Both the position numbers and the translations under genes were made by a program. A stretch of 24,748 bases of DNA, from assembly GCA_031459535.1 (NCBI GenBank), contig JAVKIJ010000046.1, positions 1 to 24,748 on the forward strand, written 5' to 3'. This DNA is from Candidatus Fervidifonticultor quintus (lineage in GTDB: Bacteria; Sysuimicrobiota; Sysuimicrobiia; Sysuimicrobiales; Humicultoraceae). The notes under the pieces are model-generated. The model was not told where the DNA came from, searched no databases, and was given only the letters and a program-made list of their open reading frames with translations. Positions 1 through 18,962 of the stretch are shown piece after piece; within the stretch, counting starts at the first letter, position 1; the number at the start of each line of letters is the position of its first letter.

Positions 1-99
1 TGCTGGTTGCAACACCTCGGTTGGAGCCTGGGCGATGGCCCTCCTGTCTTCACCAAGGGCAGCTCCTCAAGTGCAAACACTACGTCCAAACAGGACACC

Positions 100-441
100 C
101 TAGTCGGGCAGGTAGTACCGGTTCTCGAGGCACAGATACCCCGTCTCCGTCCTGTACGGGCCGTGCGGGGTGCCGGGCGGCAGGCAGGTGTACGTCCCGG
201 ACCCCTGGTAGGTGTCGCCCTCCCACCAGCCCCCGTCCAGAATGTACGTTTCCTCCCAGAAGTCGTGCACCAGCACCTGGTCGATCGTCGCCCCGGGCAG
301 CGCCTTCAGGAGCCTCGTATGCGATCCTGTGTCTGGATCGAAGGAGAGGATCTTCTCGTAGGTATCGCGCGACCCTTCGACTCTCGTCCAGGGCAGTCTC
401 TCAATGTCCTCGGCGATCAGAACGACCTTGGGACGCGCCAT
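100..441 (-). CDS. ChrR-like cupin domain protein (cupin_7 type)
   Basis: 113 aa with cupin metal motifs HDFWEETYILDG and PPGTPHGPY. ATG at 441 chosen because AGGAGG (455-460) is only 1 nt from the GTG at 453. Confidence 0.8.
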   Translation of the reverse strand: MARPKVVLIAEDIERLPWTRVEGSRDTYEKILSFDPDTGSHTRLLKALPGATIDQVLVHDFWEETYILDGGWWEGDTYQGSGTYTCLPPGTPHGPYRTETGYLCLENRYYLPD

Positions 442-462
442 GTGCCAGAACACGCCTCCTGC

Positions 463-1473
463 TCAGTGATCGATCCCCAGACCGTACCGGAACGGATCCT
501 CGGGGTCCACCACGAACTGATGTATCGCGGTGAGGTACGCCTCGCCCGTCAAGAGAGGTATGATTCCAGAACGACCCTCTGTCCGCACCTCTTCCATGGG
601 TCTGACGCTGAAGACCATTCCAGCCATGCCTTCGTTCACGAACTCCCCGCCGGGGCGCAGCGCGCCACGTGCCCACAGGGCGGCGGCCCGGGCACACGTG
701 CCGGTCCCGCACGGTGACCGGCTGATCTGTCCGGAACAGATCACCACGTTGCGAGCGTGGGCCCTGGGATGCCGCGGCGGACCAAAGAACTGTACAAGAT
801 CGATCGGGCCCAGCGGAGCGCCGTTGAACGGATGGCGGAGGTGCAGCTGGGAATTGGCGGCGTCCCGGATCTCTCGCCACGCCTCTTTCAGCCCGGCCAC
901 CGCCCCGGGCTCCACATCCAGGCCCAGTTGCCCAGCCTCGACGATCACGTACGCGTTGCCGGCATACGCGATGTCAGCCAGCACGGCGCGCCCATCCGCA
1001 AGGGTGAGGCGGACGTCGAGGTCCAGGGCCACGGACGGCACGTTGACGACCTCCGCGTAGGACGACCCCGCATCCGTGCGCACCGCACGGGCCTGCACGG
1101 CCCCCGCGGGAGTGTCGAAGACTGCGCGCGCTTCGCCGGCTGTCCACGGAACGCTACCCACCTGGGCCAGAGCGGTGATCAGCGCCAGGGTGCCGTGGCC
1201 GCACATGGGCAGGTAGCCGGCGGCGTGCATAAAGAACACCCCGAAATCCGCATCAGCGAGGGCAGGCGGCGTCAGGACCGCCCCCATCATGTCGGCGTGG
1301 CCGCGGGGCTCGAGGATGAGAGCCCGCCGCAACCAGTCATGCGTCTCGGCGCAATGGGCCATGCGGTGGGCGACGGTGGCCCCGCGAAGCACCGGTCCGC
1401 CCGCGACCAGTACCCGCATGGGATCGCCACCGGCGTGGGCGTCGACCGCGATCAGGACCTGACTGGCGTTCAT
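463..1473 (-). CDS. Proline racemase/hydroxyproline epimerase family protein
   Basis: Motifs EPRGHADM, LPMCGHG and RSPCGTGT, with both catalytic Cys present. ATG at 1473 has an AGGAGGAG SD and an ATGA overlap with the upstream stop. The ORF-track extension to 1614 is an overlap artefact. Confidence 0.9.
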   Translation of the reverse strand: MNASQVLIAVDAHAGGDPMRVLVAGGPVLRGATVAHRMAHCAETHDWLRRALILEPRGHADMMGAVLTPPALADADFGVFFMHAAGYLPMCGHGTLALITALAQVGSVPWTAGEARAVFDTPAGAVQARAVRTDAGSSYAEVVNVPSVALDLDVRLTLADGRAVLADIAYAGNAYVIVEAGQLGLDVEPGAVAGLKEAWREIRDAANSQLHLRHPFNGAPLGPIDLVQFFGPPRHPRAHARNVVICSGQISRSPCGTGTCARAAALWARGALRPGGEFVNEGMAGMVFSVRPMEEVRTEGRSGIIPLLTGEAYLTAIHQFVVDPEDPFRYGLGIDH

Positions 1474-2372
1474 CTCCGGTCTCCTCCTGCCGTCCTCGCC
1501 ACCATGAAGTGCATGGCCGCGCAGGCAGCCATCATGGCAGTCTGGCTGCGGAAGTCCACGAGCGGGTTCGTCTCGACGATGCTCAGGGCTCGGGCGGCGG
1601 GCGCCACGGCCCACAAGAAGTCCAGCAGCTGCCGGGCGGTGAGGCCTCCGGGCTCAAATGCCCCAGCGCCGGGGGCGACCGCCGGGTCCAAGACATCCAT
1701 GTCCAGCGCCACGTAGGTCGTCGTCCCCCGTGTGACCTCCTGCGCCCGTGCCGCGGCCTCTTCCGCCCCGATCCGCTGAAACTCCCGTGCAGGGAGCAGC
1801 GTGATCCCCTTCCGGTGAATGAACTCGAAGGACGAGGGGAAGTTGAAGTTGCGCACCCCGATCTGAATGACCCGGGCCGGTGAGAGACGGGGCAGCTCCA
1901 GGCTGCGTCGGATCCCGCTACTGTGGGAGAGCCGACCCTGGAGATCGGACTCGTCCAACAGGTCCAGGTGGGCGTCCAGGTGGATGAGTCCCAGTTCCCC
2001 TGGCGTCTCATGGTGCAGAGCCCGGATGGCCGGGAAGGTGACCGAGTCATCCCCACCCAGGATGATGGGAATCGTGGGGGTTCGGAAGATCTCTCGCAGG
2101 CGGGCGGTGATGCGTTCGCCCGTTTGGGCCACGTCGTGGGCGACGACCGCGACGTCGCCAAGGTCGCGGACCGCACCGGCACTGAACGGCACCACGCGGT
2201 CGATATCGACCACGTAGATCGCCCCGTTCTGTTCCCTCTGGAGCATCCAGCGCAGCGCGCGGCGGATCTCCTCGGGTGCGTAGCGGCTGCCGGGCCACCC
2301 CAGGCTCGCACCACCGTCGAAGGGAATCCCCAGGATCGCGAACGCCGCTTGGTGGCCCCCTGACGCTGTCAT
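1470..2372 (-). CDS. Ureohydrolase (agmatinase/arginase/amidinohydrolase family) protein
   Basis: Motifs GIPFD, DLGDV, GGDDS, DAHLD, QIGVR, DMDVLDP, EPGGL and VETNP. Confidence 0.9.
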   Translation of the reverse strand: MTASGGHQAAFAILGIPFDGGASLGWPGSRYAPEEIRRALRWMLQREQNGAIYVVDIDRVVPFSAGAVRDLGDVAVVAHDVAQTGERITARLREIFRTPTIPIILGGDDSVTFPAIRALHHETPGELGLIHLDAHLDLLDESDLQGRLSHSSGIRRSLELPRLSPARVIQIGVRNFNFPSSFEFIHRKGITLLPAREFQRIGAEEAAARAQEVTRGTTTYVALDMDVLDPAVAPGAGAFEPGGLTARQLLDFLWAVAPAARALSIVETNPLVDFRSQTAMMAACAAMHFMVARTAGGDRR

Positions 2373-2394
2373 GGCTCACACCCCCGTCCGATAG

Positions 2395-2423
2395 CTGGAG
2401 CCCGGGGGGAACCCGGGCCCCAG
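2395..2423 (-). terminator. GC-rich hairpin after the SBP gene (mRNA stabiliser or weak terminator)
   Basis: Minus strand CUGGGGCCCGGG-UUCCC-CCCGGGCUCCAG forms a 12-bp stem with one G-U pair, starting 3 nt after the SBP stop. No U-tract follows. Confidence 0.55.
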
Positions 2424-2426
2424 TCC

Positions 2427-3557
2427 CTACTGCACCGGATAGAGTACAACCTGACCCCCCTGGATGGTCACAATCGGCAAGCGCTTGCCCGTGACCACCC
2501 GCTGCGACAGGTCGGTCAGGCCGGTGACGCCCCGGTAGTCCCGGATGGCCTGGAGCGCATCCCGAATGGCGGCCCGGTCGGCCTTCCCGGACCGCTTGAT
2601 GGCCAGGGCCAGCACGTATGCGGCGTCATAGGCGTACGGTGCAAACTGGTCGGGGTCCTTGTTGTACCTGGCGCGGTAGGCCTTCAAGAAGGCCTGAACC
2701 TTGGGATCCGTGCTGGTCGGCACGAAGTGGCTGGGGAAGATGACCCCCTCGAAGGCCTGCCCGGCGATCTTGACCGCTTCCGGTGAATAGATGCCGTCGC
2801 CGCCGATGATAGGCATGGTGTAGCCGAGCTTGCGGGCCTGCAGCGCGATCAGGGCGGCGTCCGAATAGTAGGAAGCGAGCGCCAGCACTTCGGGGTTGGC
2901 GTTCCTGATCTTGGTGAGGAACACGCTGAAGTCCTTGTCCTGCCCGCTCACGAATGTCTCGGACGCGACGATCTTCCCCCCAAACTCGGCGACCGTGTCG
3001 CGAAAGACTTGCGCAAAGCCCTTTCCGTACTCCGTGTTGTCCCACAGGATGCCCACCCTGGACTTCTTGAACCTGGTGACAGTCCACTCGGCGAGCTGCC
3101 TGGCCTGGAAATCGTCTCCGACGTTGATCCGGAAGGTCCACGGGCCCGCCTTGGCCACCTTGGGGTTGGTGGAGGCGATGGCGAACTGCACCATGCCCGC
3201 TCGGTTGTAGATGGGTGCCGTGGCGATCGTAGCGCTGCTGAAGAAATGCCCGAGCATGGCGACCAGTCGCTTGTCCAACACCATCTTCTCGGCCACGGCG
3301 ACGGCTTCTTTGGGATCGCCCTTGTCGTCGCCCACGACCAACCGGAGAGGGCGTCCCAGCACCCCGCCGGCCCGGTTGATCTCTTCAAAGGCCAGGTCGA
3401 TGCCTTCCTTGACCCGCTGCCCGTACTCCGCGTTGTCACCGGTCATTGGCGCAGCCATGCCCACATAGATGGGTTGAGGCTGCGCGGCCAGTGGCGGCGT
3501 AACCAGCGCCAGTGCCAGCAAGATCCCGAAGGCCCGTACCGTGTATGCCACCCGCAT
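2427..3557 (-). CDS. Branched-chain amino acid-type (LivJ/K family) ABC substrate-binding protein
   Basis: Signal peptide ending PPLAA; motifs APMTG, INRAGGVLGRPL, DDKGDP and YAYDA. AAGGAGG SD upstream. Confidence 0.92.
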   Translation of the reverse strand: MRVAYTVRAFGILLALALVTPPLAAQPQPIYVGMAAPMTGDNAEYGQRVKEGIDLAFEEINRAGGVLGRPLRLVVGDDKGDPKEAVAVAEKMVLDKRLVAMLGHFFSSATIATAPIYNRAGMVQFAIASTNPKVAKAGPWTFRINVGDDFQARQLAEWTVTRFKKSRVGILWDNTEYGKGFAQVFRDTVAEFGGKIVASETFVSGQDKDFSVFLTKIRNANPEVLALASYYSDAALIALQARKLGYTMPIIGGDGIYSPEAVKIAGQAFEGVIFPSHFVPTSTDPKVQAFLKAYRARYNKDPDQFAPYAYDAAYVLALAIKRSGKADRAAIRDALQAIRDYRGVTGLTDLSQRVVTGKRLPIVTIQGGQVVLYPVQ

Positions 3558-3635
3558 CGCTGTCCTCCTTACTCTCCAGTGTCAGAGCCTGCGGCCTGCC
3601 CACCCAGATCTCGAACATTCTCACCCCCTTCGCGC

Positions 3636-4349
3636 TCAAGATGTGATCCCGAGGTACGTGGACCGAACAGCCCGATCGGCCAGCAACGCGTGGCCCGGAC
3701 CTTCAAGCACAATCGTGCCCCGCTCCATGACGTACGCGTAGTCTGCCAGACGCAGCGCCTGCCGGGCATTCTGCTCCACCAGGAGCACCGTGACGCCTTC
3801 CCGCCTGATGTCGCCAATGTGCTCAAAGATCTGCCTCACGAGCACAGGTGCCAGCCCCGTAGAAGGCTCGTCCAGCAACAGGAGACGAGGTCGGGCCATG
3901 AGCGCACGGGCGATGGCGAGCATTTGCTGCTCACCGCCGCTGAGCGTGCCCCCTCGCTGGGTCAGGCGAACCCTGAGGGCAGGGAACAATCGGAGGACGA
4001 GCTGAAACCGGCGCGCCGCCTCCGCATCCCAGGTGTAGAGGTATCCGCCCAGCAACAGGTTCTCCCACACGGTCAGCGGTCCAAAGATGCGCCGCCCCTC
4101 GGGAGCCTGCACGATCCCCAGGCGGACCAGCGCGTGCGGCGGCATTCCGGTGATCTCGCGGCCATCGAACACCACGCGCCCGGACGCCGGACGGATCAGC
4201 CCGCTGAGACAGCGTAGCAGGGTCGTCTTGCCGGCTCCGTTGGCGCCGATGAGGGTCACAATCTGGCCCTCCCCCACCCGGAGCGAGATCCCGTGCAGGG
4301 CCTCGATGGCCCCGTAGGCCACCCGGAGACCCTCAATGGTCAGGAGCAT
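3636..4349 (-). CDS. livF: ABC ATP-binding protein, LivF family
   Basis: Walker A GANGAGKT, signature LSGGEQQ, Walker B LLLLDEPS, LLVEQN. Confidence 0.92.
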   Translation of the reverse strand: MLLTIEGLRVAYGAIEALHGISLRVGEGQIVTLIGANGAGKTTLLRCLSGLIRPASGRVVFDGREITGMPPHALVRLGIVQAPEGRRIFGPLTVWENLLLGGYLYTWDAEAARRFQLVLRLFPALRVRLTQRGGTLSGGEQQMLAIARALMARPRLLLLDEPSTGLAPVLVRQIFEHIGDIRREGVTVLLVEQNARQALRLADYAYVMERGTIVLEGPGHALLADRAVRSTYLGITS

Positions 4350-5118
4350 GAGAGCCCTCTTCCTCGCCCAGATACGCTTCGATCACCCGGGCGTCGCGCT
4401 GGACGGCCTCCGGAGGCCCCTCGGCGATCTTCTCGCCTTGATTGAGGACGACGATCCGATCGCAGGTGCCCATGATCATGCGCATGTGGTGCTCGATCAA
4501 CAGGATGGTCAAACCCTCACGTCGCAGCTGTGTGATGATCTTCACGAGTTGGTCAGTTTCGTTGGGATTCATGCCGGCGCTCGGCTCGTCCAACAGGAGC
4601 AGGCGCGGGCTGGTCGCCAGCGCCCGGGCCAGCTCCACGAGCCGCTGTTGACCGTACGGCAGGCTGGCCACCGGCGCCCCAGGCTCGGGCAGCCCCATCT
4701 CGGCAATCAGGGCGGCGGCCCGGGCCCGGGCCGCTTCTTCGCGGGTGCGTGCCGCCGGCGCGGTCGCCAGCGCCTCCACGAGGCGGGGCGCAATCGACAG
4801 GTGCATGCCAACCAGCACGTTGTCCAGCACCGACATGCTGGTGAAGAGGCGCAGGTTCTGAAACGTGCGGGCGATGCCGAGGGCCGTGATGCGGTACGGC
4901 GGCAGGCCGGCCAGGCTGTGGCCGTCGAAGACCATGTCGCCTGCCGTGGGTCGGTAGAGTCCGGTCAGAAGATTGAAGACCGTGGTCTTCCCGGCGCCGT
5001 TGGGGCCAATCAGGCCCACGATTTCGTGGCGATCCACACCGAATGAAAGGTCGCCAACGGCCCGAAGGCCTCCAAACACCTTCGTCAGCCCGGCCACGCG
5101 CAGCAGCGGCTCGGCCAC
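4333..5118 (-). CDS. livG: ABC ATP-binding protein, LivG family
   Basis: GPNGAGKT, ARTFQN, LPYGQQR, LLLDEP and IEHHM. GTG at 5118 has a GAGGGG SD; alternative start at 5136. Confidence 0.92.
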   Translation of the reverse strand: MAEPLLRVAGLTKVFGGLRAVGDLSFGVDRHEIVGLIGPNGAGKTTVFNLLTGLYRPTAGDMVFDGHSLAGLPPYRITALGIARTFQNLRLFTSMSVLDNVLVGMHLSIAPRLVEALATAPAARTREEAARARAAALIAEMGLPEPGAPVASLPYGQQRLVELARALATSPRLLLLDEPSAGMNPNETDQLVKIITQLRREGLTILLIEHHMRMIMGTCDRIVVLNQGEKIAEGPPEAVQRDARVIEAYLGEEEGSHAPDH

Positions 5119-5119
5119 C

Positions 5120-6091
5120 CTACACCCCTCGGTCACCCATCAAGCCCCGCGGTCGGAAGATCATCAGAACGACCATCAGGCCCCCGTAGGCGAGCTGGCG
5201 GTACAGCGCCAGGCCGCGGAGCAACTCCGGGACCACGGTCAACACCACGGCGCCCACCACGGCGCCTACGATGGTCCCCCGGCCTCCCAGCGCCAGCATG
5301 GTGAGAATGGCAATGGACTCCCACCCGCTGAAGTTCGTGGGGTTAATGAACGTCACGTAGTGGGCGAACAGGGCGCCAGCCACGCCGGCGTAGAACGCGC
5401 TGATGGCAAACCCGAGGATCTTGAAGGCGACGGTCGGCACGCCCATGATGGCCGCGGCCGTCTCGTTGTCACGGATGGCCACCCACGCCCGGCCAATTGC
5501 GCCGCGCCGCCACGCGGCGATCGGGATGACGGTCAGGAGCACGAAGGCCAGCACCATATAGTAGTAGGCGATCTTGCCCGCGAACGCGAACCCTGGCACG
5601 GCCGGAACAGGGATCCCGGGAATGCCGATCGGGCCCCGCGTCACGGTCTCCCAGTTGATCAGCACGAAACGCACGATCTCCCCGAACCCGAGCGTGACGA
5701 TCGCCAAGTAGTCGCCCCGGACGCGCAGGGTCGGGAATCCCAGGAGCACGCCGGAGATGAAAGCCGCCAGCCCGGCCACCGGCAGTGCAATCCAGAACCC
5801 GTACCAGGCCTCCCCGAATACATCGAGGCTCAGGAGCGCGGCGACATATGCGCCGATGCCGTAGAACGCCGCGTGGCCCAGATGCAGCAACCCCAGGTAG
5901 CCCGCGACGATGTTCAGACTCACCGTGAGGATGACATACAGGCCGCTCATGATCGCGATGTGCAGCACGTAAGGATCCCTGATGAAGAGCGGCAGTCCCA
6001 GAGCCGCCACGAGGAGCACGCGGCCGAAGATGGCCTGGAAGTCGGCGCCCCGGCGGGCAGTGGCCAGCGCGTCCGCTGTCCACCGCTTCAT
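5120..6091 (-). CDS. livM: ABC permease, LivM family
   Basis: LGHAAFYGIGAY, LRVRGDYLAIVTLGFGEI, AIRDNE and LGGRGT. Start uncertain (ATG 6091 or GTG 6115). Confidence 0.9.
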   Translation of the reverse strand: MKRWTADALATARRGADFQAIFGRVLLVAALGLPLFIRDPYVLHIAIMSGLYVILTVSLNIVAGYLGLLHLGHAAFYGIGAYVAALLSLDVFGEAWYGFWIALPVAGLAAFISGVLLGFPTLRVRGDYLAIVTLGFGEIVRFVLINWETVTRGPIGIPGIPVPAVPGFAFAGKIAYYYMVLAFVLLTVIPIAAWRRGAIGRAWVAIRDNETAAAIMGVPTVAFKILGFAISAFYAGVAGALFAHYVTFINPTNFSGWESIAILTMLALGGRGTIVGAVVGAVVLTVVPELLRGLALYRQLAYGGLMVVLMIFRPRGLMGDRGV

Positions 6092-6098
6092 GGTCAGA

Positions 6099-6971
6099 CT
6101 ACGCGCGTTCCTCACCGTAGGCGCCGAGGATGCCTCCCGGCCGAACCAACAGGACCAGGATCAGGATGATGTACGCGATGGCGTCCTTGTAGCCCGAGGA
6201 GATGTAGGCCGCCCCCACGGTCTCGGCCATCCCCAGGAACAGCCCCCCGACCATGGCACCGGGGATGTTGCCGATTCCGCCCAGGATGGCCGCCACGAAG
6301 GCCTTCAGCCCGATGATGTCGCCCATGTTGAAGACCACCACGTTGTAGTAGGACCCCACCAGGATGCCGGCCGCAGCGGCCAACCCCGAGCCGATGGCAA
6401 AGGTGGCGGAGATGACCCGATCGATGTCGATACCCATCAGCCGGGCGGCATCCATGTCGAGCGTGCTGGCCCGCATGGCAGCGCCGATCTTCGTCAGGTA
6501 GATGAACAGGGAGAGGACGAGCATCAGAGCCAGGCTGCCGCCGATGATGGCCAGCCGGGCCACGGGCAGCTGGAACCCGAGGAAGCTGCCGGCCTCCGGG
6601 AGGAGCGAAGGAAATCGCTTGGGCGACGAGCCCCACAGCAGCATCGCCACGTTGTTGAGGACAATCAGCATCCCCAGGGCGCTGATCAGCTGGGCCGAGC
6701 GCGGTGCGGTGCGGATGGGACGATAGGCCACCAGCTCGACCAGCACGCCCAGCACCGCCGTCGCCAACACGGCCACGGCCACGACAGTCGCCGTGCCGCC
6801 GGGTACGGATCGGGTGAGCAGCGCCAGGGCGAAGAAACCGCCCATCATGTAGATGCTCCCGTGAGCAAAGTTGATCAGGTTGAGCACGCCGTAGGCCATG
6901 GTGTAGCCCACGGCCACGAGCGCGTATACACTCCCGATCGTGAGGCCGTTGAGCAGTTGATCGATCAGCAT
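6099..6971 (-). CDS. livH: ABC permease, LivH family
   Basis: QLLNGL, INFAHG, GAAMRA and KAFVAAILGGIG. Confidence 0.92.
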   Translation of the reverse strand: MLIDQLLNGLTIGSVYALVAVGYTMAYGVLNLINFAHGSIYMMGGFFALALLTRSVPGGTATVVAVAVLATAVLGVLVELVAYRPIRTAPRSAQLISALGMLIVLNNVAMLLWGSSPKRFPSLLPEAGSFLGFQLPVARLAIIGGSLALMLVLSLFIYLTKIGAAMRASTLDMDAARLMGIDIDRVISATFAIGSGLAAAAGILVGSYYNVVVFNMGDIIGLKAFVAAILGGIGNIPGAMVGGLFLGMAETVGAAYISSGYKDAIAYIILILVLLVRPGGILGAYGEERA

Positions 6972-7067
6972 GCGGGGCAGTCTCCGGCTACGAACATAGG
7001 GAAGAATGACTTCGGTGAACCATCGGTTGCGGACCTGATTGGATCACTCCCGATCGGCGCCCGTCCG

Positions 7068-8285
7068 TCAGGGCCCGGCCCCAGGCGTCATCCGCACCCG
7101 CAGGAGCAGGACGGTTCCGACGAGTGTGAGCGCGGCCGCTGTGCCAAACGCCACGGGTGCACCTTGGGTCTGCCAGAGGAATCCCACGAGCACGCTGGAG
7201 ATGAGGTCGCCGATCCCGTTAACCGTCGCCAGGGCGCCGAAGCCAAACGCGCGTTGAGTCTCTTCAAGGAGGTCGGCAGCCGCCGCCCGCTCGAGCGCCT
7301 CCTCAATGCCGATGTAGATGCCCGAGCCAAGGAAGACCATCGCCAGAATAGGCAAGGGGCGGCGGTCCAGGGCCATGGTGAGGGTCACGACCCCCGCCAG
7401 CAGATACCCGAACAGCAGGAGCGGTCGCCGTCCCACGCGATCGCTCCACCCCCCGATGACGTAGGAACTCGCCGCGCTCACCACGTTGTAGGCCGCATAG
7501 AGAAGGATCGGCAAGGTGAGTTGACCGGTCCCGCCGATCTCCACGCCAACTCCGAGCGCCCAGAGGATGAGGAGCGTCCGGGAGAAGTCGCCCGCCCCGA
7601 AGACGCCCACGGCGAGCAGGAATCGCCGGAAGTTTGCTGGCAGAGACACGGTCATCTGCCAGAACGACTGTGAGGGACGGACCCCGCCTCGTTCGCGAAC
7701 TGTCAGGAACAGCAGGCCGGCCAGTATCCCCGGGATCAGCGTGACTAGGAGGATGGTCCGGAGGCGGGTTGACGCGGCAAGTAGGGCCAGCGCGACGAGC
7801 GGGCCGAGGACGGCGCCGACGGTGTCCATCGCGCGCTCGAAGCCAAATGCCCGGCCGTAGGCGGCCGGGGTGGTCTGCTCGGCCAGGAGCGTGTCACGGA
7901 GAGGCCCGCGAAAGCCACGACCGAGCCAGGCCACCGTGCGCCCCAACAGCACGTGCAGCCAGCTGGTCGCCAGCGCGAAGGAGCCGGTCGCCAGTGCCGT
8001 GACGAAGTACGCCGTCGCCGCCGGGCCCCGGCGGCGTCGCAGTCTTCCACCGAGATAGCCCGCCCACAGCTTGGCTGCGCTCGATGCGAAGTCCGCCAGT
8101 CCCTCGATGACGCCCAAGGCCAGCGGCGTGCCGCCAATGCTGACGAGGAACAGCGGGAGCACCGCGGTTGCGGTCTCATGGCCGAGGTCGCTCAGCAGGC
8201 TGGCCAGGCCTATGGCAACGACGCCCGGGGCGAGGGCCGGCGGAGCACGGTTGCCGGCTCTTCCAGAACTCGTCTCTTCTCTCAT
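7068..8285 (-). CDS. MFS transporter
   Basis: About 12 hydrophobic segments; MFS motif A GGWSDRVGRR; GRAFGFERAMDTVGA. Confidence 0.9.
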   Translation of the reverse strand: MREETSSGRAGNRAPPALAPGVVAIGLASLLSDLGHETATAVLPLFLVSIGGTPLALGVIEGLADFASSAAKLWAGYLGGRLRRRRGPAATAYFVTALATGSFALATSWLHVLLGRTVAWLGRGFRGPLRDTLLAEQTTPAAYGRAFGFERAMDTVGAVLGPLVALALLAASTRLRTILLVTLIPGILAGLLFLTVRERGGVRPSQSFWQMTVSLPANFRRFLLAVGVFGAGDFSRTLLILWALGVGVEIGGTGQLTLPILLYAAYNVVSAASSYVIGGWSDRVGRRPLLLFGYLLAGVVTLTMALDRRPLPILAMVFLGSGIYIGIEEALERAAAADLLEETQRAFGFGALATVNGIGDLISSVLVGFLWQTQGAPVAFGTAAALTLVGTVLLLRVRMTPGAGP

Positions 8286-8467
8286 CCCAGGTGCGAGCCA
8301 AGAACTCTACGGACTGCTGCTGCCATCCTCTGGCCGTAAAGTGGAAGACCGAGAACGCGCGCCAAACGAGGAGGTTCTGCGGCAGACTTGTACCATTTCA
8401 TCGAGACAGGTGCGCCCAAGAGGGCACGGAACATGGGCAGGCATGTGCGGGCACCTTCTGAACGCAT

Positions 8468-8510
8468 CGGCGCCCGACACACGGGACGGGACCTCCCGCG
8501 TTAGGCGCCG
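8468..8510 (-). terminator. Imperfect GC-rich hairpin just 3' of the tRNA
   Basis: Outer arms CGGCGCC/GGCGCCG and inner arms CGGGA/TCCCG, starting 4 nt after the CCA end. No U-tract. Confidence 0.4.
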
Positions 8511-8514
8511 GCGT

Positions 8515-8591
<77 letters not shown>

Positions 8592-8602
8592 TCGCACCTT
8601 GA

Positions 8603-8631
8603 ATCCTACCGCCGCCCCGGGCTGGTGTCAA
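8603..8631 (-). promoter_or_regulatory. sigma70-type promoter of tRNA-fMet
   Basis: TTGACA (8631-8626), 17-nt spacer, TAGGAT (8608-8603), ending 11 nt upstream of the tRNA. Confidence 0.8.
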
Positions 8632-8656
8632 CAAAGGGGAATGGCGCAACCGACCC

Positions 8657-9259
8657 TCACCGCCACCTGGCCAGGGTCGGGTCGTGCGCCAGCATCCAGG
8701 CCTCATTGGTGCGCCACGGGGAGAGGACCTCGGAGCGCACGCGAACGGCCTTGTCGGTCCACTGCACCCCGTCGCGCGCCACTGGTTTGCCGTCGGCCCG
8801 GTAGTACCACTTGACGTCCTGAATCAGGAACCAGAGATAGTGCAGGTACGACGACGCCACGACCTCGGTCACATCCATCATACCAGCGTCGAAGAATCCC
8901 ACCGGCGATTCGCCCAAGCCGTCTCGGCGGTCGAGCAGCAGCACGTAGGGGTTTCCGCACCCGTCGCTGCCGACCTCGACGTACGCGTCCTTCCAGCCCA
9001 GCGCGCCCCACAGCGCCCGCGCCTGCCGCGTCGAGTACAGAAGATTGAGCGCGGTCTGGATGGGCGGCACACCCAGCACGGGCTCGTGGACAATGAACCC
9101 GCCGTTGAACGCCGCCAGGACCTGGAGCATCGACGGTGGAAATCGGACGCCCAGCTCGGTCTGAGTCCGGGCGACCTGGTGTGGGATCGCCGGCTCGTTC
9201 AGGCGTACCACGCCCGGGGCGAAGTACGCCAGCTCTCGCCGGATGTCGTGCAGCGTCAC
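8657..9259 (-). CDS. SMI1/KNR4 (SUKH) family protein
   Basis: Pattern NEPA...TQTELGVRFPPS...FNGG and GSDGCGNPYVL. GTGA overlap with the purR stop. Confidence 0.8.
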   Translation of the reverse strand: MTLHDIRRELAYFAPGVVRLNEPAIPHQVARTQTELGVRFPPSMLQVLAAFNGGFIVHEPVLGVPPIQTALNLLYSTRQARALWGALGWKDAYVEVGSDGCGNPYVLLLDRRDGLGESPVGFFDAGMMDVTEVVASSYLHYLWFLIQDVKWYYRADGKPVARDGVQWTDKAVRVRSEVLSPWRTNEAWMLAHDPTLARWR

Positions 9260-10128
9260 GGAGCGTCGCCGGCCTGCCCGAGCTCTAGGCCGGCCGCCAG
9301 GGCGTCGATCCAGCGGCTCGGGCTCACCCGAGGCTCGCCGTCCACCACGCCGTGGTAGGTGATCAGCGCCAGATACCGGTCCAGCATCTTGTCTGCAGGG
9401 TGCTCCGTCTCAATCAATACCCCAACACCGACCACTTGAGCCCCGAACTCCCGCATCAAGTCATATACCCCACGGGCCGTCCCGCCACCGCGCAGAAAGT
9501 CGTCGATGAACAGGGCGCGGGCCCCCCGCGGCATGACACGAAGGGGCAGGGTCATGGACTGCACCATTCTGGACGATCCGGACACGTAGTTCACGCTGAC
9601 CGACGGGCCATCGGTCACCTTCCCGCCACGCCGGATGGTGACCAGCGGGACGTTGAACGCCCGCGCGGTCATGAACGCCAGCGGGATCCCCTTGACCTCC
9701 ATGGTCAGGATCACGTCGGGCCGGGCCTGCCAGAACAGCGTGGCGAAGGCTTCGCCGATCTCCTCCGTCAGCGAAGGCGTGGAGACGATGTCAGCGGTGT
9801 AGAGGAACCCGCCGGGAAGCACGCGCCCCGGATCGCGCAGCCGGGCGCACAGATCCTCGACCAGGCGCACGATCTGCTCGCGGGACCGCAGCGGCCGGAA
9901 GCGCACGCCGCCGCCTGCGCCCGGGACCGTCTCGATGCGACCGATGCCGAACCGGTCGCAGACCGCCCGTAGCAGGGCCAGGTCTTCGCTCACCGTGGAC
10001 TTGGCGGCCCCTGTCGCTTCGGCGAAACTGGACAGGGAGTGCAGCTGGTTGGGCGCGCGCATCAGGCGGCGCGCCAGGAGCACCATCCGGTCTCCCCGCC
10101 GCAGCCGACCGCCCTCGCGCGTCGCCAT
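9256..10128 (-). CDS. purR: Pur operon repressor, Bacillus-type (wHTH + PRTase domain)
   Basis: AAKSTVSEDL, ETVPGAGGGVRF, RVLPGGFLY, SVNYVSGSS and PRPP loop IDDFLRGGGT. ATG at 10128 has a GGAGGGGG SD. Confidence 0.92.
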   Translation of the reverse strand: MATREGGRLRRGDRMVLLARRLMRAPNQLHSLSSFAEATGAAKSTVSEDLALLRAVCDRFGIGRIETVPGAGGGVRFRPLRSREQIVRLVEDLCARLRDPGRVLPGGFLYTADIVSTPSLTEEIGEAFATLFWQARPDVILTMEVKGIPLAFMTARAFNVPLVTIRRGGKVTDGPSVSVNYVSGSSRMVQSMTLPLRVMPRGARALFIDDFLRGGGTARGVYDLMREFGAQVVGVGVLIETEHPADKMLDRYLALITYHGVVDGEPRVSPSRWIDALAAGLELGQAGDAP

Positions 10129-10154
10129 CTGTCCCCCTCCGCGCCGCGGGCGGC

Positions 10155-10913
10155 CTATCGGCTCTCCGACCCCGCCAGGGCGGCCTGCAGCACCGCCAGG
10201 TTCTCCGGCCGCTGCGTGTCCACGTCGAGGGCGAGCTCCGGGCTGGACACGATGACGGCCCGGGCGCGAATGCCGGTGATGTCGTACGCCCGCGCCTCCA
10301 GCTCGGCGATGGACAGACGGCCAGAGGCGAATTTCATGACGACGGCCCACCCGAACATCTGCGCCAGCACCCAGGGCTTCTTCCGCGCGGCCAGGATCTG
10401 CTCGACGAACGGTCGGACGCGGCCGATGACATCAGCCGCAAACAGCAGGACGCTGCCGCCGGTAAACGTGCCGTCTGTGACCCGAACGTAGGTCTTGCGC
10501 GCGCCAGGATAGCGCTGCTCGATGACCGCCTGCGGCACCACCGGGTAGTAGAAGTCGGCGCCAGTCTGGCAGCGCCCGAGGAAGTCGTCCAGCACCCTCC
10601 CCGTCAGCAGGGGCAGGTCGGAGGCCACGGCCAGGACCTGGCCGGTCGCCCCCACCTTCCTTATCGCGGCCTCGACGTTGTGCATCATCGAACCCTGCTC
10701 GGGCACGACCTCGACGCCGGGCCCCACGAGCGCCAAGAGCGGTTCGGCCGGCCCCACCACGACGATCCGGTCCACGGCCGCGCATGCCCGCAGGGCCGCC
10801 AGCACATGGACGAGGAGCGGCCGGCCCCCCAGCGTCAAGAACGCTTTGTTGGGCAGACCGGGTGCCAGGCGGGGTTCAGGCTCCCCGCCGGCCATGACGA
10901 TGGCAGCGGGCAC
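10155..10913 (-). CDS. MobA-like nucleotidyltransferase domain protein, function unknown
   Basis: AIVMAGG...NKAFLTLGGRPLL, ASDLPLL and ALDVD. GTG start overlaps the ispE stop. Confidence 0.8.
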   Translation of the reverse strand: MPAAIVMAGGEPEPRLAPGLPNKAFLTLGGRPLLVHVLAALRACAAVDRIVVVGPAEPLLALVGPGVEVVPEQGSMMHNVEAAIRKVGATGQVLAVASDLPLLTGRVLDDFLGRCQTGADFYYPVVPQAVIEQRYPGARKTYVRVTDGTFTGGSVLLFAADVIGRVRPFVEQILAARKKPWVLAQMFGWAVVMKFASGRLSIAELEARAYDITGIRARAVIVSSPELALDVDTQRPENLAVLQAALAGSESR

Positions 10914-16755: not shown

Positions 16756-18141
16756 CTACGGCGCCTGGTCCACGAGCTCGACGAGCGCCCCGTGGGTGTC
16801 TCTGGGGTGGACGAACACGATCCGGGTTCCGCGCGATCCCCTCCGGGGCTCTCGGTCGACCAGCGTGTAGCCGGCGTCGCGGACTCGCTCCATGGCCTGC
16901 ACCACGTCGGGCACCGCCAGCGCGATGTGGTGGATGCCCTCGCCGCGGCGTTCGACGAACCGTGCGACGGGACCGTCGGCCGCGGCCGGCTCGAGGAGCT
17001 CGATGCGGATCTCTCCCAGCGCGACGAAGGCTGCGACCACGCCGTCGTCGGGCAGCAGCTCCGCGTCACTCACCACCAGGCCCAGAGCGTCCCGGTAGAA
17101 GCGCCCCGCGTCGTCGAGATCGCGGACCGCAATGCCAATGTGGTCGAGGCGCACCCCCGGTGCGGCTGGCACCGGCGCACGCGCCGGCTGCGGCCCCGAG
17201 GCGGGTGCCAGTAGCAGGCCGGCCGCCGAGTGGGGATCGAGGCTCCCCCCGGCCACCCGCTCGACGAGCTCTTCCAGCCGGGCTCCAGACGCCCAGGCCG
17301 CCACCTGCTCCCGCACCCTGGCTTCGGCCGCCCGCAGGATCTCGCGCCGGCGGCGGTCGCGCCGGCGGCGCTCCAGCTCACCGGTGGATTCCTGATACCG
17401 GCGGTGGTCGGCCACGGCGGCCAGCACGTCGTTGACGCCTTCGCCCGTGGTGGCCACGGTGGCCAGCACCGGAGGTCGCCAGCGGTGCTCCTGGATCGAG
17501 CCCAGGGTCATCCGGAGATCCGCCACCGTCCGATCTGCGTCCGGCCGGTCGGCCTTGTTCACGACGAAGACATCTCCGATCTCCATGACGCCCGCCTTGA
17601 GTGTCTGGACCCCGTCGCCCAGCCCCGACGCGGTGACCACGACCACCGTGTCCGCGGCCGCCACCACGTCCACCTCGGCCTGGCCCGTACCGACCGTCTC
17701 GATCAGGACGGTGGACGCACCCCACCCGTCCAGGACCGCCACCGCCTCCGCAGCGGCTGGTGCGAGCCCCCCGAGGCTGCCACGGGTGGCCATCGAGCGC
17801 ACGAACACCTCGGGATCGGTACTGTGGTCCTGCATGCGGACCCGGTCGCCGAGCAGCGCGCCGCCGCTGAACGGGCTGGTGGGGTCGACGGCGATGACGC
17901 CGACCCGTTGCCCCTGCGCCCGCAGGGCCCGGATGGCCGCGTTCACCAGCGTGCTCTTGCCGCAGCCGGGTGGGCCGGTAATCCCGACCACGTACGCGCG
18001 CCCGGTGTGGGGCACGATCGCCTGGAGCACTTCCGCGGCGCGCGCGCCGTCGTTCTCGAGCAGGGAGATCAGGCGCGCCGCTGCCGCCGCAGAGCCACTC
18101 AGCAGCGCGGCGACGAGTTGCCGGATGGTCTGGTCGGTCAT
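16756..18141 (-). CDS. meaB: Fusion of MeaB/ArgK (MMAA) GTPase metallochaperone and methylmalonyl-CoA epimerase
   Basis: MeaB part: GITGPPGCGKST, AVDPTSPFSGGALLGDRVRM, RSMATRG, ETVGTGQ and NKAD. An Ala/Pro linker follows, then a VOC domain: LDHIGIAV, IELLEP, GEGIHHIAL, FVHPRDTHGALVELV. ATG at 18141 has a GGAG SD. Confidence 0.9.
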   Translation of the reverse strand: MTDQTIRQLVAALLSGSAAAAARLISLLENDGARAAEVLQAIVPHTGRAYVVGITGPPGCGKSTLVNAAIRALRAQGQRVGVIAVDPTSPFSGGALLGDRVRMQDHSTDPEVFVRSMATRGSLGGLAPAAAEAVAVLDGWGASTVLIETVGTGQAEVDVVAAADTVVVVTASGLGDGVQTLKAGVMEIGDVFVVNKADRPDADRTVADLRMTLGSIQEHRWRPPVLATVATTGEGVNDVLAAVADHRRYQESTGELERRRRDRRRREILRAAEARVREQVAAWASGARLEELVERVAGGSLDPHSAAGLLLAPASGPQPARAPVPAAPGVRLDHIGIAVRDLDDAGRFYRDALGLVVSDAELLPDDGVVAAFVALGEIRIELLEPAAADGPVARFVERRGEGIHHIALAVPDVVQAMERVRDAGYTLVDREPRRGSRGTRIVFVHPRDTHGALVELVDQAP

Positions 18142-18176
18142 GTCCGCTCCCATGCTAGGGTCGAGGCCGGACGGCT

Positions 18177-18962
18177 TCAAGCGCCGATCTCGGCGGCGAG
18201 CCGGTCATAGGCGGCCGGGGAGAGGACGCCACCCGGACCCACCAGATCTGCTAGCACCCCGCTGCGACGCAGTCGTTCCAGGGCCCGACCAATCGCCAGC
18301 TTGCTTCCCACGCCCGGCCGCAGCGCCGGGCGAAACGCGTCGTGCAGCAGGGCCGCGGCACGCCGCGCGGCATCGGCGCCGCCGGGGCCGCGCGCCTCGA
18401 ATTCGACCTCGTAGTGCCGGACGTCCACGCCCGGCAGATGGTAGACGACCGCGTCCACCGCCATCTCCGCCGCGGTCGCCCCGGGGTCACCGGACTCCAC
18501 GAGATGACGCACTGCCCTCTGGCATTCGCGATCCTGGACCACGGCGAGGCCCACCGCCCGGACGCTTGCCCGCGGATCGCCGGCTCCGGGCAGATGGGAG
18601 AAGCGGAGCCCTCCGAGACCCCTGGCGTCCAGCTCCGCGGCCACCTCCGGCGCTCCCTCGGGCCACGGCCGTTCGATCTCCAACCGCCGCACGCCGGCGC
18701 CCGGGAGGCGCTCCTCGTCGCCCTTGAGTGCGACCCACAGCTCCCCACCCACCGAGCGGATGCGCAGCGTCACGTGCGCCGCCCGAAGCGCTTCCTCGGG
18801 CGTGTCGAAGTAGAGGTCTCGGAGAAGCAGCAGGGGGCCCGGCTGCAGCCGGTAGGGGCCGAGACGCGCCAGCGAGACGACAGCCAGGCTCGTGGCCTCG
18901 GGATCGGCGGCCGCGATGGTCAGGCTGAACTCCGTCTCGAGATCGGCGGCCGGAGGGGCCAC
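18177..18962 (-). CDS. CYTH domain (triphosphate tunnel metalloenzyme) protein
   Basis: ETEF (ExE), DLYFDT, TLRIR, ALKG, RLEIE, YEVEFE and SK near the C-terminus. Confidence 0.8.
   Translation of the reverse strand: MAPPAADLETEFSLTIAAADPEATSLAVVSLARLGPYRLQPGPLLLLRDLYFDTPEEALRAAHVTLRIRSVGGELWVALKGDEERLPGAGVRRLEIERPWPEGAPEVAAELDARGLGGLRFSHLPGAGDPRASVRAVGLAVVQDRECQRAVRHLVESGDPGATAAEMAVDAVVYHLPGVDVRHYEVEFEARGPGGADAARRAAALLHDAFRPALRPGVGSKLAIGRALERLRRSGVLADLVGPGGVLSPAAYDRLAAEIGA

Follow-up and report, generated by a model that had tools for sequence, protein, structure and literature searches.

An operon-like gene cluster for a Liv-type importer, an Asp-for-His ureohydrolase, a divergent proline-racemase-superfamily enzyme and a cupin in Candidatus Fervidifonticultor quintus

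The sequence analyzed here (the window) is the forward strand of contig JAVKIJ010000046.1, 24,748 nucleotides (nt) in length, from assembly GCA_031459535.1 of Candidatus Fervidifonticultor quintus. It represents one entire contig (C80) of a metagenome-assembled genome (MAG) of 3.1 Mb in 138 contigs, estimated as 88.85% complete with 5.24% contamination. The minus strand of the window carries eight co-oriented open reading frames (ORFs) between bases 6971 and 100, which encode a Liv-type ABC importer and its dedicated secreted binding protein, a ureohydrolase of the arginase family, a two-Cys enzyme of the proline racemase superfamily (PRS), and a small cupin. All eight frames are intact and have proper starts. 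The predicted genes and other features are listed in Table 1.

An earlier note on this DNA had described the eight genes as co-oriented with short gaps or overlaps, had placed an ATGA overlap between the ureohydrolase and racemase genes, and had taken the whole as one operon-like unit with translational coupling. The ORF listing and Pfam assignments agree with this description. Measured from longest-ORF starts, the Liv genes overlap their neighbors by 17 nt at three junctions, while gaps of 78 nt and 54 nt separate livF from the binding protein gene and the binding protein gene from the ureohydrolase gene, respectively. The ureohydrolase stop and the PRS start share the sequence ATGA, a 4-nt overlap at 1473-1470 with AGGAGGAG just before it, and the gap from PRS to cupin is 9-21 nt, depending on the cupin start. 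The ATG at 441 is the more likely cupin start, rather than the GTG at 453, because it is better spaced from AGGAGG and its N-terminus agrees with that of a homologue in genome G023, which belongs to another genus of the same family. The same note had remarked on the absence of hydroxyproline catabolic genes nearby, and this was likewise upheld: unlike a hydroxyproline cluster, the unit has no adjoining genes for a D-hydroxyproline oxidase/dehydrogenase or a pyrroline-hydroxy-carboxylate deaminase, neither family being represented among the ORFs of bases 1-10400 (ORF listing and Pfam).

Table 1. Features of the window, and PRK07475 genes clustered with related ureohydrolases at other loci (L-numbers). 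Lengths are in amino acids (aa); scores are in bits where so marked.
Feature	Coordinates	Strand	Evidence and remarks
LivH-type ABC permease, 290 aa	6971-6099	minus	BPD_transp_2 PF02653, 144 bits; best NCBIfam LivH, 229 vs cut-off 379
LivM-type ABC permease, 331 aa by longest ORF	6115-5120	minus	PF02653, 153 bits; LivM subfamily, 251 vs cut-off 366
LivG-type ABC ATPase, 267 aa	5136-4333	minus	ABC_tran and BCA_ABC_TP_C tail; LivG, 283 vs cut-off 362
LivF-type ABC ATPase, 237 aa	4349-3636	minus	ABC_tran; LivF, 280 vs cut-off 441
Secreted HAAT-family substrate-binding protein, 376 aa	3557-2427	minus	Peripla_BP_6, 231 bits; N-terminal hydrophobic signal-like segment
Arginase-family ureohydrolase, 300 aa, Asp-for-His (GGDDS) clade	2372-1470	minus	PF00491, 215 bits
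Two-Cys PRS enzyme, 336 aa, rare divergent clade	1473-463	minus	PF05544 Pro_racemase, 305 bits
Small single-domain metal-type cupin	441-100 (113 aa) or 453-100 (GTG start, 117 aa)	minus	Cupin_7, 32.2 bits vs cut-off 27
MFS transporter	7068-8285	minus	MFS_1; co-oriented, 96 nt upstream of livH; same variable region
tRNA-Met	8515-8591	minus	ARAGORN and Rfam tRNA; boundary between conserved synteny and variable region
Repeat	1-103		Begins at cupin stop codon, runs to contig end
PRK07475 genes	L071:8917-9651; L083:4628-5218; L086:8909-9631; L089:8848-9621; L091:2282-3055; L092:2186-2911		Clustered with ureohydrolase

The importer comprises a full HAAT set by Pfam, with two BPD_transp_2 permeases, two ATPases (one with BCA_ABC_TP_C), and one Peripla_BP_6 protein. 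In this respect it resembles the branched-chain amino acid transporter LivJHMGF, all five components and all family domains being present. It differs in that each component scores below its E. coli-type NCBIfam equivalog or subfamily cut-off, the binding protein gene comes last, and the transporter is tied to catabolic enzymes, as in a Bacillota MAG (locus L091) and in actinobacterial loci. The closest solved chains to the binding protein are 3hut, 3td9, and 4gnr (E-values 1e-52 to 1e-50), and its identity to the L091 binding protein is 41%.

The ureohydrolase matches PF00491 over its full length (residues 10-290; cut-off 22 bits), and falls under every NCBIfam equivalog cut-off, including two agmatinase profiles (TIGR01230, 140.4 vs 174.3; another, 157 vs 302), formimidoylglutamase/HutG (TIGR01227, 133.7 vs 229), and arginase (TIGR01229, 78 vs 227.6). 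The closest solved structure is guanidinopropionase (3nip, E 7e-40), followed by proclavaminate amidinohydrolase and guanidinobutyrase. Residue-by-residue alignments place the motif GGDDS where relatives read GGDHS (GGDH in 3nip and 1gq6), and the first metal-binding His is therefore an Asp in the window enzyme. The other five metal ligands are present, with DAHLD, DMDVLDP, and the later Glu retained, and D108, D109, H131, D133, H135, D137, D224, D226, and E267 are invariant across 23 aligned relatives. The norm for the arginase family, as given in PMC11271267, is a conserved binuclear metal site of four Asp and two His, from which the site of the window enzyme departs.

Comparison with GpuA (3nip) and GbuA (3nio) of Pseudomonas aeruginosa and with proclavaminate amidinohydrolase (1gq6) revealed an arginase fold along the full length (E 7e-40 to 7e-33) and shared DAHxD and DxDxxDP metal motifs; urea release from a guanidino group is the chemistry expected of the window enzyme as well. 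It is set apart from these three by Asp (GGDD) at the position of their first metal His (GGDH), by membership in a large separate clade with no solved or named member, and by its location within a Liv-type importer operon with a racemase.

The family has abundant homologues around 50% identity (1252 matches), many of them from Rokubacteria/Methylomirabilota, Acidimicrobiia, Dormibacterota, and actinomycetes. Among 75 family ORFs taken from loci, the first-His position was occupied by Asp in 60 (GGDDS, GGDDA, GGDDC, or GGEDS) and by His in 9, the remaining 6 being mis-called and left unscored. The nine ORFs that keep His belong to a Bacillus-group clade and to loci L057, L069, L091, and L092, and seven distant paralogues, among them L010 of genome G022, also show GGDH. 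A maximum-likelihood tree was built by a quick search from 84 rows, after removal of four that were short or had an internal stop, and with the G023 fragment described below and four distant paralogues excluded. In it the Asp-type ureohydrolases formed one clade with a Shimodaira-Hasegawa-like approximate likelihood ratio test (SH-aLRT) value of 99. The window enzyme grouped with P0001, P0004, and L013 in a small basal sub-clade (SH-aLRT 97). Since the GGDD substitution is conserved clade-wide, it is not a private defect or a sign of decay. Separately, two proteins of 650-660 aa (P0395 and P0396), 33% identical to the window ureohydrolase, join an arginase-family domain to a TauD-type 2-oxoglutarate dioxygenase domain.

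The PRS enzyme likewise falls under every NCBIfam equivalog cut-off, with scores of about half the required values: 291 vs 556 for proline racemase (NF010576), 252 vs 376 for 4-hydroxyproline epimerase (NF010578), and 245 vs 540 for trans-3-hydroxyproline dehydratase (NF045511). Its fold is that of true proline racemases, which provide the closest solved structures (AsProR, 7pb3, E 1e-71; Trypanosoma cruzi TcPRAC, 1w61, E 7.5e-66). TcPRAC numbering is used here by way of the 1w61 alignment, the chain numbering of which agrees with the published Cys130 and Cys300. Goytia et al. 2007 (PMC1964878) give MCGH and MIII (DRSPCGXGXXAXXA) as essential motifs, Leu127, His132, and Asp296 as pocket residues common to racemases and epimerases, Phe102 (R1) and Phe290 as racemase-specific, and His270 (R2), an XLA block after MIII (R3), and Val or Ser at 102 as epimerase-specific; C/T variants are included in Table 1 of that paper.

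The window enzyme keeps both catalytic Cys (PMCGHG and SPCGTGT), MCGH, Leu127, and His132. Phe102 is replaced by Met, Phe290 by Cys, and Asp296 by Ser, and the motifs read SRSPCGTGT for DRSPCGTGT and HAGGDP for HTxGEP, so that neither the MIII motif nor the Phe102/Phe290 pair of proline racemases is preserved. The features of 4-hydroxyproline 2-epimerases are also lacking, with Leu rather than His at position 270 (racemase-like), Met at 102, and the block ALW in place of XLA. With its residues mixed or replaced in this manner, the enzyme fits neither the racemase nor the epimerase signature. In trans-3-hydroxy-L-proline dehydratases the second catalytic Cys is a Thr; the pair in the window enzyme is Cys/Cys. 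Loss of both ring-packing Phe and of a carboxylate reported to be one of the residues assisting catalysis suggests a wider, less anionic pocket.

Met102, Cys290, and Ser296 were found in all members of the PRS clade with sequence at each site (4-5 of 5; P0122, P0124, and P0125 were scored at all three sites, and the partial P0126 only at 290 and 296), while the next homologues, at no more than 46% identity, have the canonical residues. The clade is small. Five clusters at 60% identity or above were present in a collection of 5.8 billion clusters, one of them named as from Longimicrobiales, and only one of the 93 other genomes of the phylum has a member. A search of metagenome contigs for PRS relatives returned 23 loci, all at 31-40% identity, the 6703-bp contig described below not being among them. 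The earlier note had called both enzymes atypical and had stated that they deviate at conserved active-site positions. Both judgments are confirmed. With every equivalog cut-off missed, neither enzyme can be classed as a typical agmatinase, arginase, HutG, proline racemase, or 4-hydroxyproline epimerase; the substitutions proved to be clade-conserved, and both active sites depart from those of all characterized relatives. A second PRS gene is present in the genome (G000:C1:115139-116146; L139 6113-7165) and is of the Ser/Cys type (MSGT, DRSPCGTGT). It was considered as a member of a hydroxyproline cluster and rejected, its neighbors being pantothenate genes, a beta-lactamase-like gene, and an amidase gene.

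The cupin belongs to Cupin_7 (ChrR-like) by profile match and by its cupin barrel. An AlphaFold 2 (AF2) model (predicted local distance difference test, pLDDT, 96) gave TM1459, KdgF, RemF, and the ChrR C-domain as best Foldseek matches. An alignment of 28 relatives shows conservation of H59, E63, E64, and H93; the first motif keeps just one His, with the Glu and the second-motif His conserved. A homologue in G023, 71% identical, likewise follows a PRS gene. Four further homologues in the phylum (45-49% identity) lie on contigs other than those of the PRS matches of the same genomes and offered no functional lead, and a whole-library search yielded 435 relatives, many of them two-domain proteins, without names.

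DNA synteny with all five congeners starts near position 8657 and continues through PurR, an IspE-like kinase, KsgA, methylmalonyl-CoA mutase, and a carboxylase. Because this housekeeping block lies on the same contig, the contig belongs to the genus. On the other side of the tRNA-Met, bases 1-8500 had no DNA matches in the five congeners beyond short stretches (the MFS gene had none except one of 81 nt), and orthologues of the ureohydrolase (best E 1e-27), PRS enzyme, and cupin were found in none of the five. The GC content is 0.64-0.70 over the eight-gene unit and 0.69-0.74 downstream. Absence from congeners, the break in synteny at tRNA-Met, and the lower GC content suggest that the unit is accessory and was probably acquired horizontally next to this tRNA gene. 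Copies of bases 1-103 with 99-100% identity lie on three further contigs (C122, C110, and C56) of this assembly, that on C122 about 30 nt from the contig end after the frr gene. The assembly therefore breaks at a repeat, and the 103-nt stretch probably marks one edge of a longer repeat or of an insertion sequence. Elsewhere in the window, one frame (16756-18180) beside the methylmalonyl-CoA mutase and carboxylase genes joins a MeaB GTPase to a glyoxalase-type domain, possibly a methylmalonyl-CoA epimerase.

One alternative account is ordinary scavenging, in which common amino acids would enter through the Liv system, the hydrolase would act as an arginase or agmatinase, and the PRS enzyme would racemize proline or 4-hydroxyproline to feed the proline dehydrogenases of the genome. 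The genome has two proline dehydrogenase (Pro_dh) genes, the binding protein resembles Leu/Ile/Val binders, and the PRS enzyme shares Leu270 with proline racemases and has true proline racemases as its nearest solved structures. However, the equivalog cut-offs were all missed by wide margins, the PRS motif MIII lacks its Asp, both pocket Phe and the first metal His of the ureohydrolase are replaced, and the unit is absent from all five congeners and is therefore not core metabolism. Taken together, these observations make ordinary scavenging improbable.

The wider ureohydrolase family was represented by 80 loci from named genomes, in which PRS and cupin genes were sought by tblastn; the tally of ureohydrolase orthologues across genomes takes in G013 and G022, both flagged as unpublished, and no conclusion depends on these two by themselves. 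All four Liv membrane and ATPase components were present in nine of these loci, and in six (L025, L071, L083, L086, L089, and L091) LivHMGF lies directly upstream of and co-oriented with the ureohydrolase gene. The L091 module has the exact order of the window (LivH-M-G-F, binding protein, ureohydrolase) at 41-54% identity. Five of the six Liv-linked loci, along with L092, contain a 257-aa protein of NCBIfam PRK07475, annotated "hypothetical protein". In the four actinobacterial loci its gene starts within about 50 nt of the ureohydrolase stop, the slot held by the PRS gene in the window. The Pfam match of this protein to Asp_Glu_race falls below threshold (E 4.5e-4), but an AF2 model (pLDDT 83; predicted template modelling score, pTM, 0.81; six-sequence alignment) retrieved arylmalonate decarboxylase and hydantoin, aspartate, and glutamate racemases by Foldseek, with probability 1.00 and template modelling (TM) scores of 0.5-0.6. 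Two Cys are conserved, in the contexts NCGF and LLEC. As modeled, the PRK07475-type protein has an Asp/Glu/hydantoin racemase fold.

These uncharacterized modules of Actinomycetota, Bacillota, and Spirochaetota (L071, L083, L086, L089, L091, and L092) thus share with the window the ureohydrolase family, a Liv importer upstream in five of six (all but L092), and a cofactor-independent two-Cys racemase-type gene in the cluster, mostly straight after the hydrolase. They differ in that the racemase is of the Asp/Glu/hydantoin superfamily instead of PRS, no cupin is present, PucR-type regulators seem to lie beside the actinobacterial modules (Pfam-confirmed only for the cluster representative L072), and L091 and L092 keep the metal His. 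In the quick tree the hydrolases linked to PRK07475 fall in two places, an actinobacterial sub-clade and the basal His-keeping group, and the PRS-linked clade is a third. Kin share their gene contexts, and the racemase linkage therefore amounts to three or four independent observations, not eleven. Even so, no other observation argues as strongly that stereo-inversion is part of the pathway and that the PRS gene is an analogous replacement.

Other neighbors of the wider family include PucR-type regulators (18 loci), a thiamine pyrophosphate (TPP) enzyme (nine related loci), SSF, MFS, or APC permeases or polar-amino-acid ABC systems as transporters, and, as enzymes, class III and IV aminotransferases, 2-hydroxyacid dehydrogenases, and an argininosuccinate-lyase-like protein. 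Most of the neighboring enzymes act on amino-acid alpha-carbons or on succinate-type skeletons, which fits an amino-acid-like guanidino substrate; as a guide to one particular substrate, the neighborhoods were too heterogeneous. An SdhA/NadB-like flavoprotein gene lies beside the ureohydrolase gene in three loci of three phyla (L013 1199-4100, L091 8949-10691, and L092 3007-5348), followed in L092 by a 225-aa ORF.

The interpretation favored here, at roughly even confidence, is that the unit is an accessory import-invert-hydrolyze operon for a chiral guanidino or amidino amino acid, serving catabolism or the scavenging of nitrogen and carbon, and composed of a conserved Liv and Asp-type ureohydrolase module, a lineage-specific PRS racemase, and a cupin. 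Its catalysis, order of steps, and substrate class are inferred from sequence. The HAAT/Liv importer with its own secreted binding protein would take up an amino-acid-like compound bearing a guanidino, amidino, or formimino group and a stereocenter. The arginase-fold hydrolase, with a predicted metal site of carboxylates and a single His in which Asp stands in place of the first His, would split off urea or, less likely, formamide. The translationally coupled PRS enzyme, whose pocket is predicted to lack both ring-stacking Phe and the Asp that pairs with the ring nitrogen, would invert the alpha-carbon either of the substrate or of the resulting amino or imino acid, and both stereoisomers could then be used. 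The cupin would serve as a metal-binding accessory.

Recurrence of the three enzyme genes in other genomes bears directly on this proposal. On a 2631-bp contig of G023, a ureohydrolase (76% identity), a PRS gene (62%), and the cupin homologue occur in the same order as in the window. The ureohydrolase there (L005, G023:C245, 1281-1823) is a C-terminal fragment, residues 155-293, that abuts a divergent opposite-strand M28 peptidase gene, while the PRS and cupin genes beside it look intact, the cupin being cut by the contig end. Two metagenome proteins, P0001 (ureohydrolase, 90%) and P0122 (PRS, 88%), are each encoded on a 6703-bp contig, probably the same one. The earlier note had named a lack of co-occurrence in other genomes as a refuting outcome. 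This outcome is escaped only narrowly, since the trio recurs in close relatives alone, and with a truncated ureohydrolase in G023. A low-GC metagenome contig (L109, LKMJ01022480.1, 2800-5006) carries a PRS gene (ACIHG, DRSPCGTGT) and, 237 nt further on, a canonical GGDHS ureohydrolase gene. As a further recurrence this case is weak and possibly a chance parallel, both genes being about 30% identical to those of the window and having standard motifs.

Several observations weigh against the import-invert-hydrolyze proposal. In G023 the PRS and cupin genes persist without an intact hydrolase. The closest independent ureohydrolase orthologue, in G029 (L013, JACQTN010000265.1; 76%), is followed not by a racemase gene but by that for the SdhA/NadB-like flavoprotein and then by those for a Pfam-confirmed Fe-S subunit and an MmgE/PrpD protein (in the L013 interval given above), and the best PRS gene of G029 (46%) lies on another contig. 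Among the 80 wider-family loci, none has a PRS gene adjacent to the ureohydrolase gene and none has the cupin; the single PRS match (L068, 29% identity) is about 7 kilobases away, convergent on the opposite strand, and heads its own Liv operon. The pairing of ureohydrolase and PRS is restricted to one narrow lineage. The fusion search, itself weak evidence, returned TauD fusions and no ureohydrolase-racemase fusion. Replacement of a metal-binding His by Asp could reduce or alter activity. Neither a regulator nor a riboswitch was found with the eight-gene unit; an Rfam E-value scan of bases 1-9000 returned only the tRNA and one chance-level match, with no guanidine riboswitch. Furthermore, no urease alpha subunit or full urea carboxylase was found in the 88.85%-complete genome, and urea nitrogen may therefore be unrecoverable.

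Another account is that the unit is a mosaic. An old Liv and ureohydrolase module for a guanidino acid would have become linked, through rearrangement within a variable region, to a separate PRS and cupin pair for some imino acid, the two being transcribed together with no shared substrate. L091 retains the Liv, binding protein, and ureohydrolase genes in the same order without PRS, the 76% ureohydrolase orthologue of G029 has other partners, the wider family has no adjacent PRS or cupin gene, and the G023 pair stands beside a truncated hydrolase. Yet coupled translation is indicated by the ATGA overlap of 4 nt and the Shine-Dalgarno sequence located within the ureohydrolase gene, and G023 keeps the junction at 62-76% identity. 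Homologous modules, moreover, put a different two-Cys racemase in the same slot, so that irrelevance of the racemase to the hydrolase is hard to uphold. The mosaic account is the main rival, although we consider it rather unlikely; ordinary arginine and proline scavenging and decay are less likely still.

Decay, meaning that the unit is what remains of a transferred island and has lost function, its active sites disabled, might be read from the truncated G023 ureohydrolase, from the location of the unit in a variable region ending at a repeat, and from the alteration of catalytically relevant residues. Against this, the eight frames are intact with proper starts, the remaining catalytic residues are all kept, and the altered residues are conserved within clades (in 60 of the 75 ureohydrolases and in all PRS clade members for which a given site is covered), showing that the substitutions themselves are not decay. 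Decay is thus very improbable. As a whole, the interpretation of the unit as a catabolic pathway in the earlier note is partly supported: the operon unit, the atypical enzymes, and the presence of a racemase in homologous modules speak for it, while the narrow linkage of the PRS gene does not. The substrates suggested in that note (N-amidino or N-formimino proline or pipecolate, cyclic guanidines, or xenobiotics) are conjectural.

A broader reading extends the import-invert-hydrolyze proposal to the whole ureohydrolase family. In this reading the GGDD ureohydrolases would be a widespread isofunctional family acting on chiral guanidino or amidino acids, with the necessary stereo-inversion supplied at least twice from unrelated two-thiol racemase superfamilies. 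It is advanced tentatively, being in our estimation possible though doubtful. Candidate substrates would be alpha-N-amidino acids, such as N-amidino-proline or guanidinosuccinate, or D-configured guanidino amino acids; the PRS clade would represent a new specificity with a wide, uncharged pocket for an N-substituted or ring-modified imino acid, and the cupin would add a further step. A possible parallel is found in D-cycloserine biosynthesis, where DcsB and DcsC pair an arginase homologue with a cofactor-independent two-thiol racemase around a ureido/guanidino amino acid. That system differs in being biosynthetic, in its DapF-type racemase, and in having no importer.

The statement of the earlier note that this gene combination is not a described pathway is consistent with the literature: the library searched contained no paper with both "ureohydrolase" and "proline racemase", and none was found that pairs the two enzymes. 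The term "amidinoaspartase" was absent among the matches listed. N-amidinoproline and 1-carbamimidoyl-L-proline occurred only in three papers, which to judge from title and abstract are metabolomics or phytochemical surveys.

Research on microbial nitrogen metabolism is paying increasing attention to guanidino compounds, among them guanidine, guanidino acids, and metformin, and most arginase-family proteins are still automatically named "agmatinase". The present findings point to a large soil and groundwater clade of ureohydrolases with an altered metal site, which is easy to test, and to a rare proline-racemase clade with a rebuilt pocket. If true, the recurrent association of this hydrolase with racemases of two unrelated types would offer a clean case of non-orthologous displacement that defines the logic of a pathway, and could assign genes to orphan activities such as amidinoaspartase.

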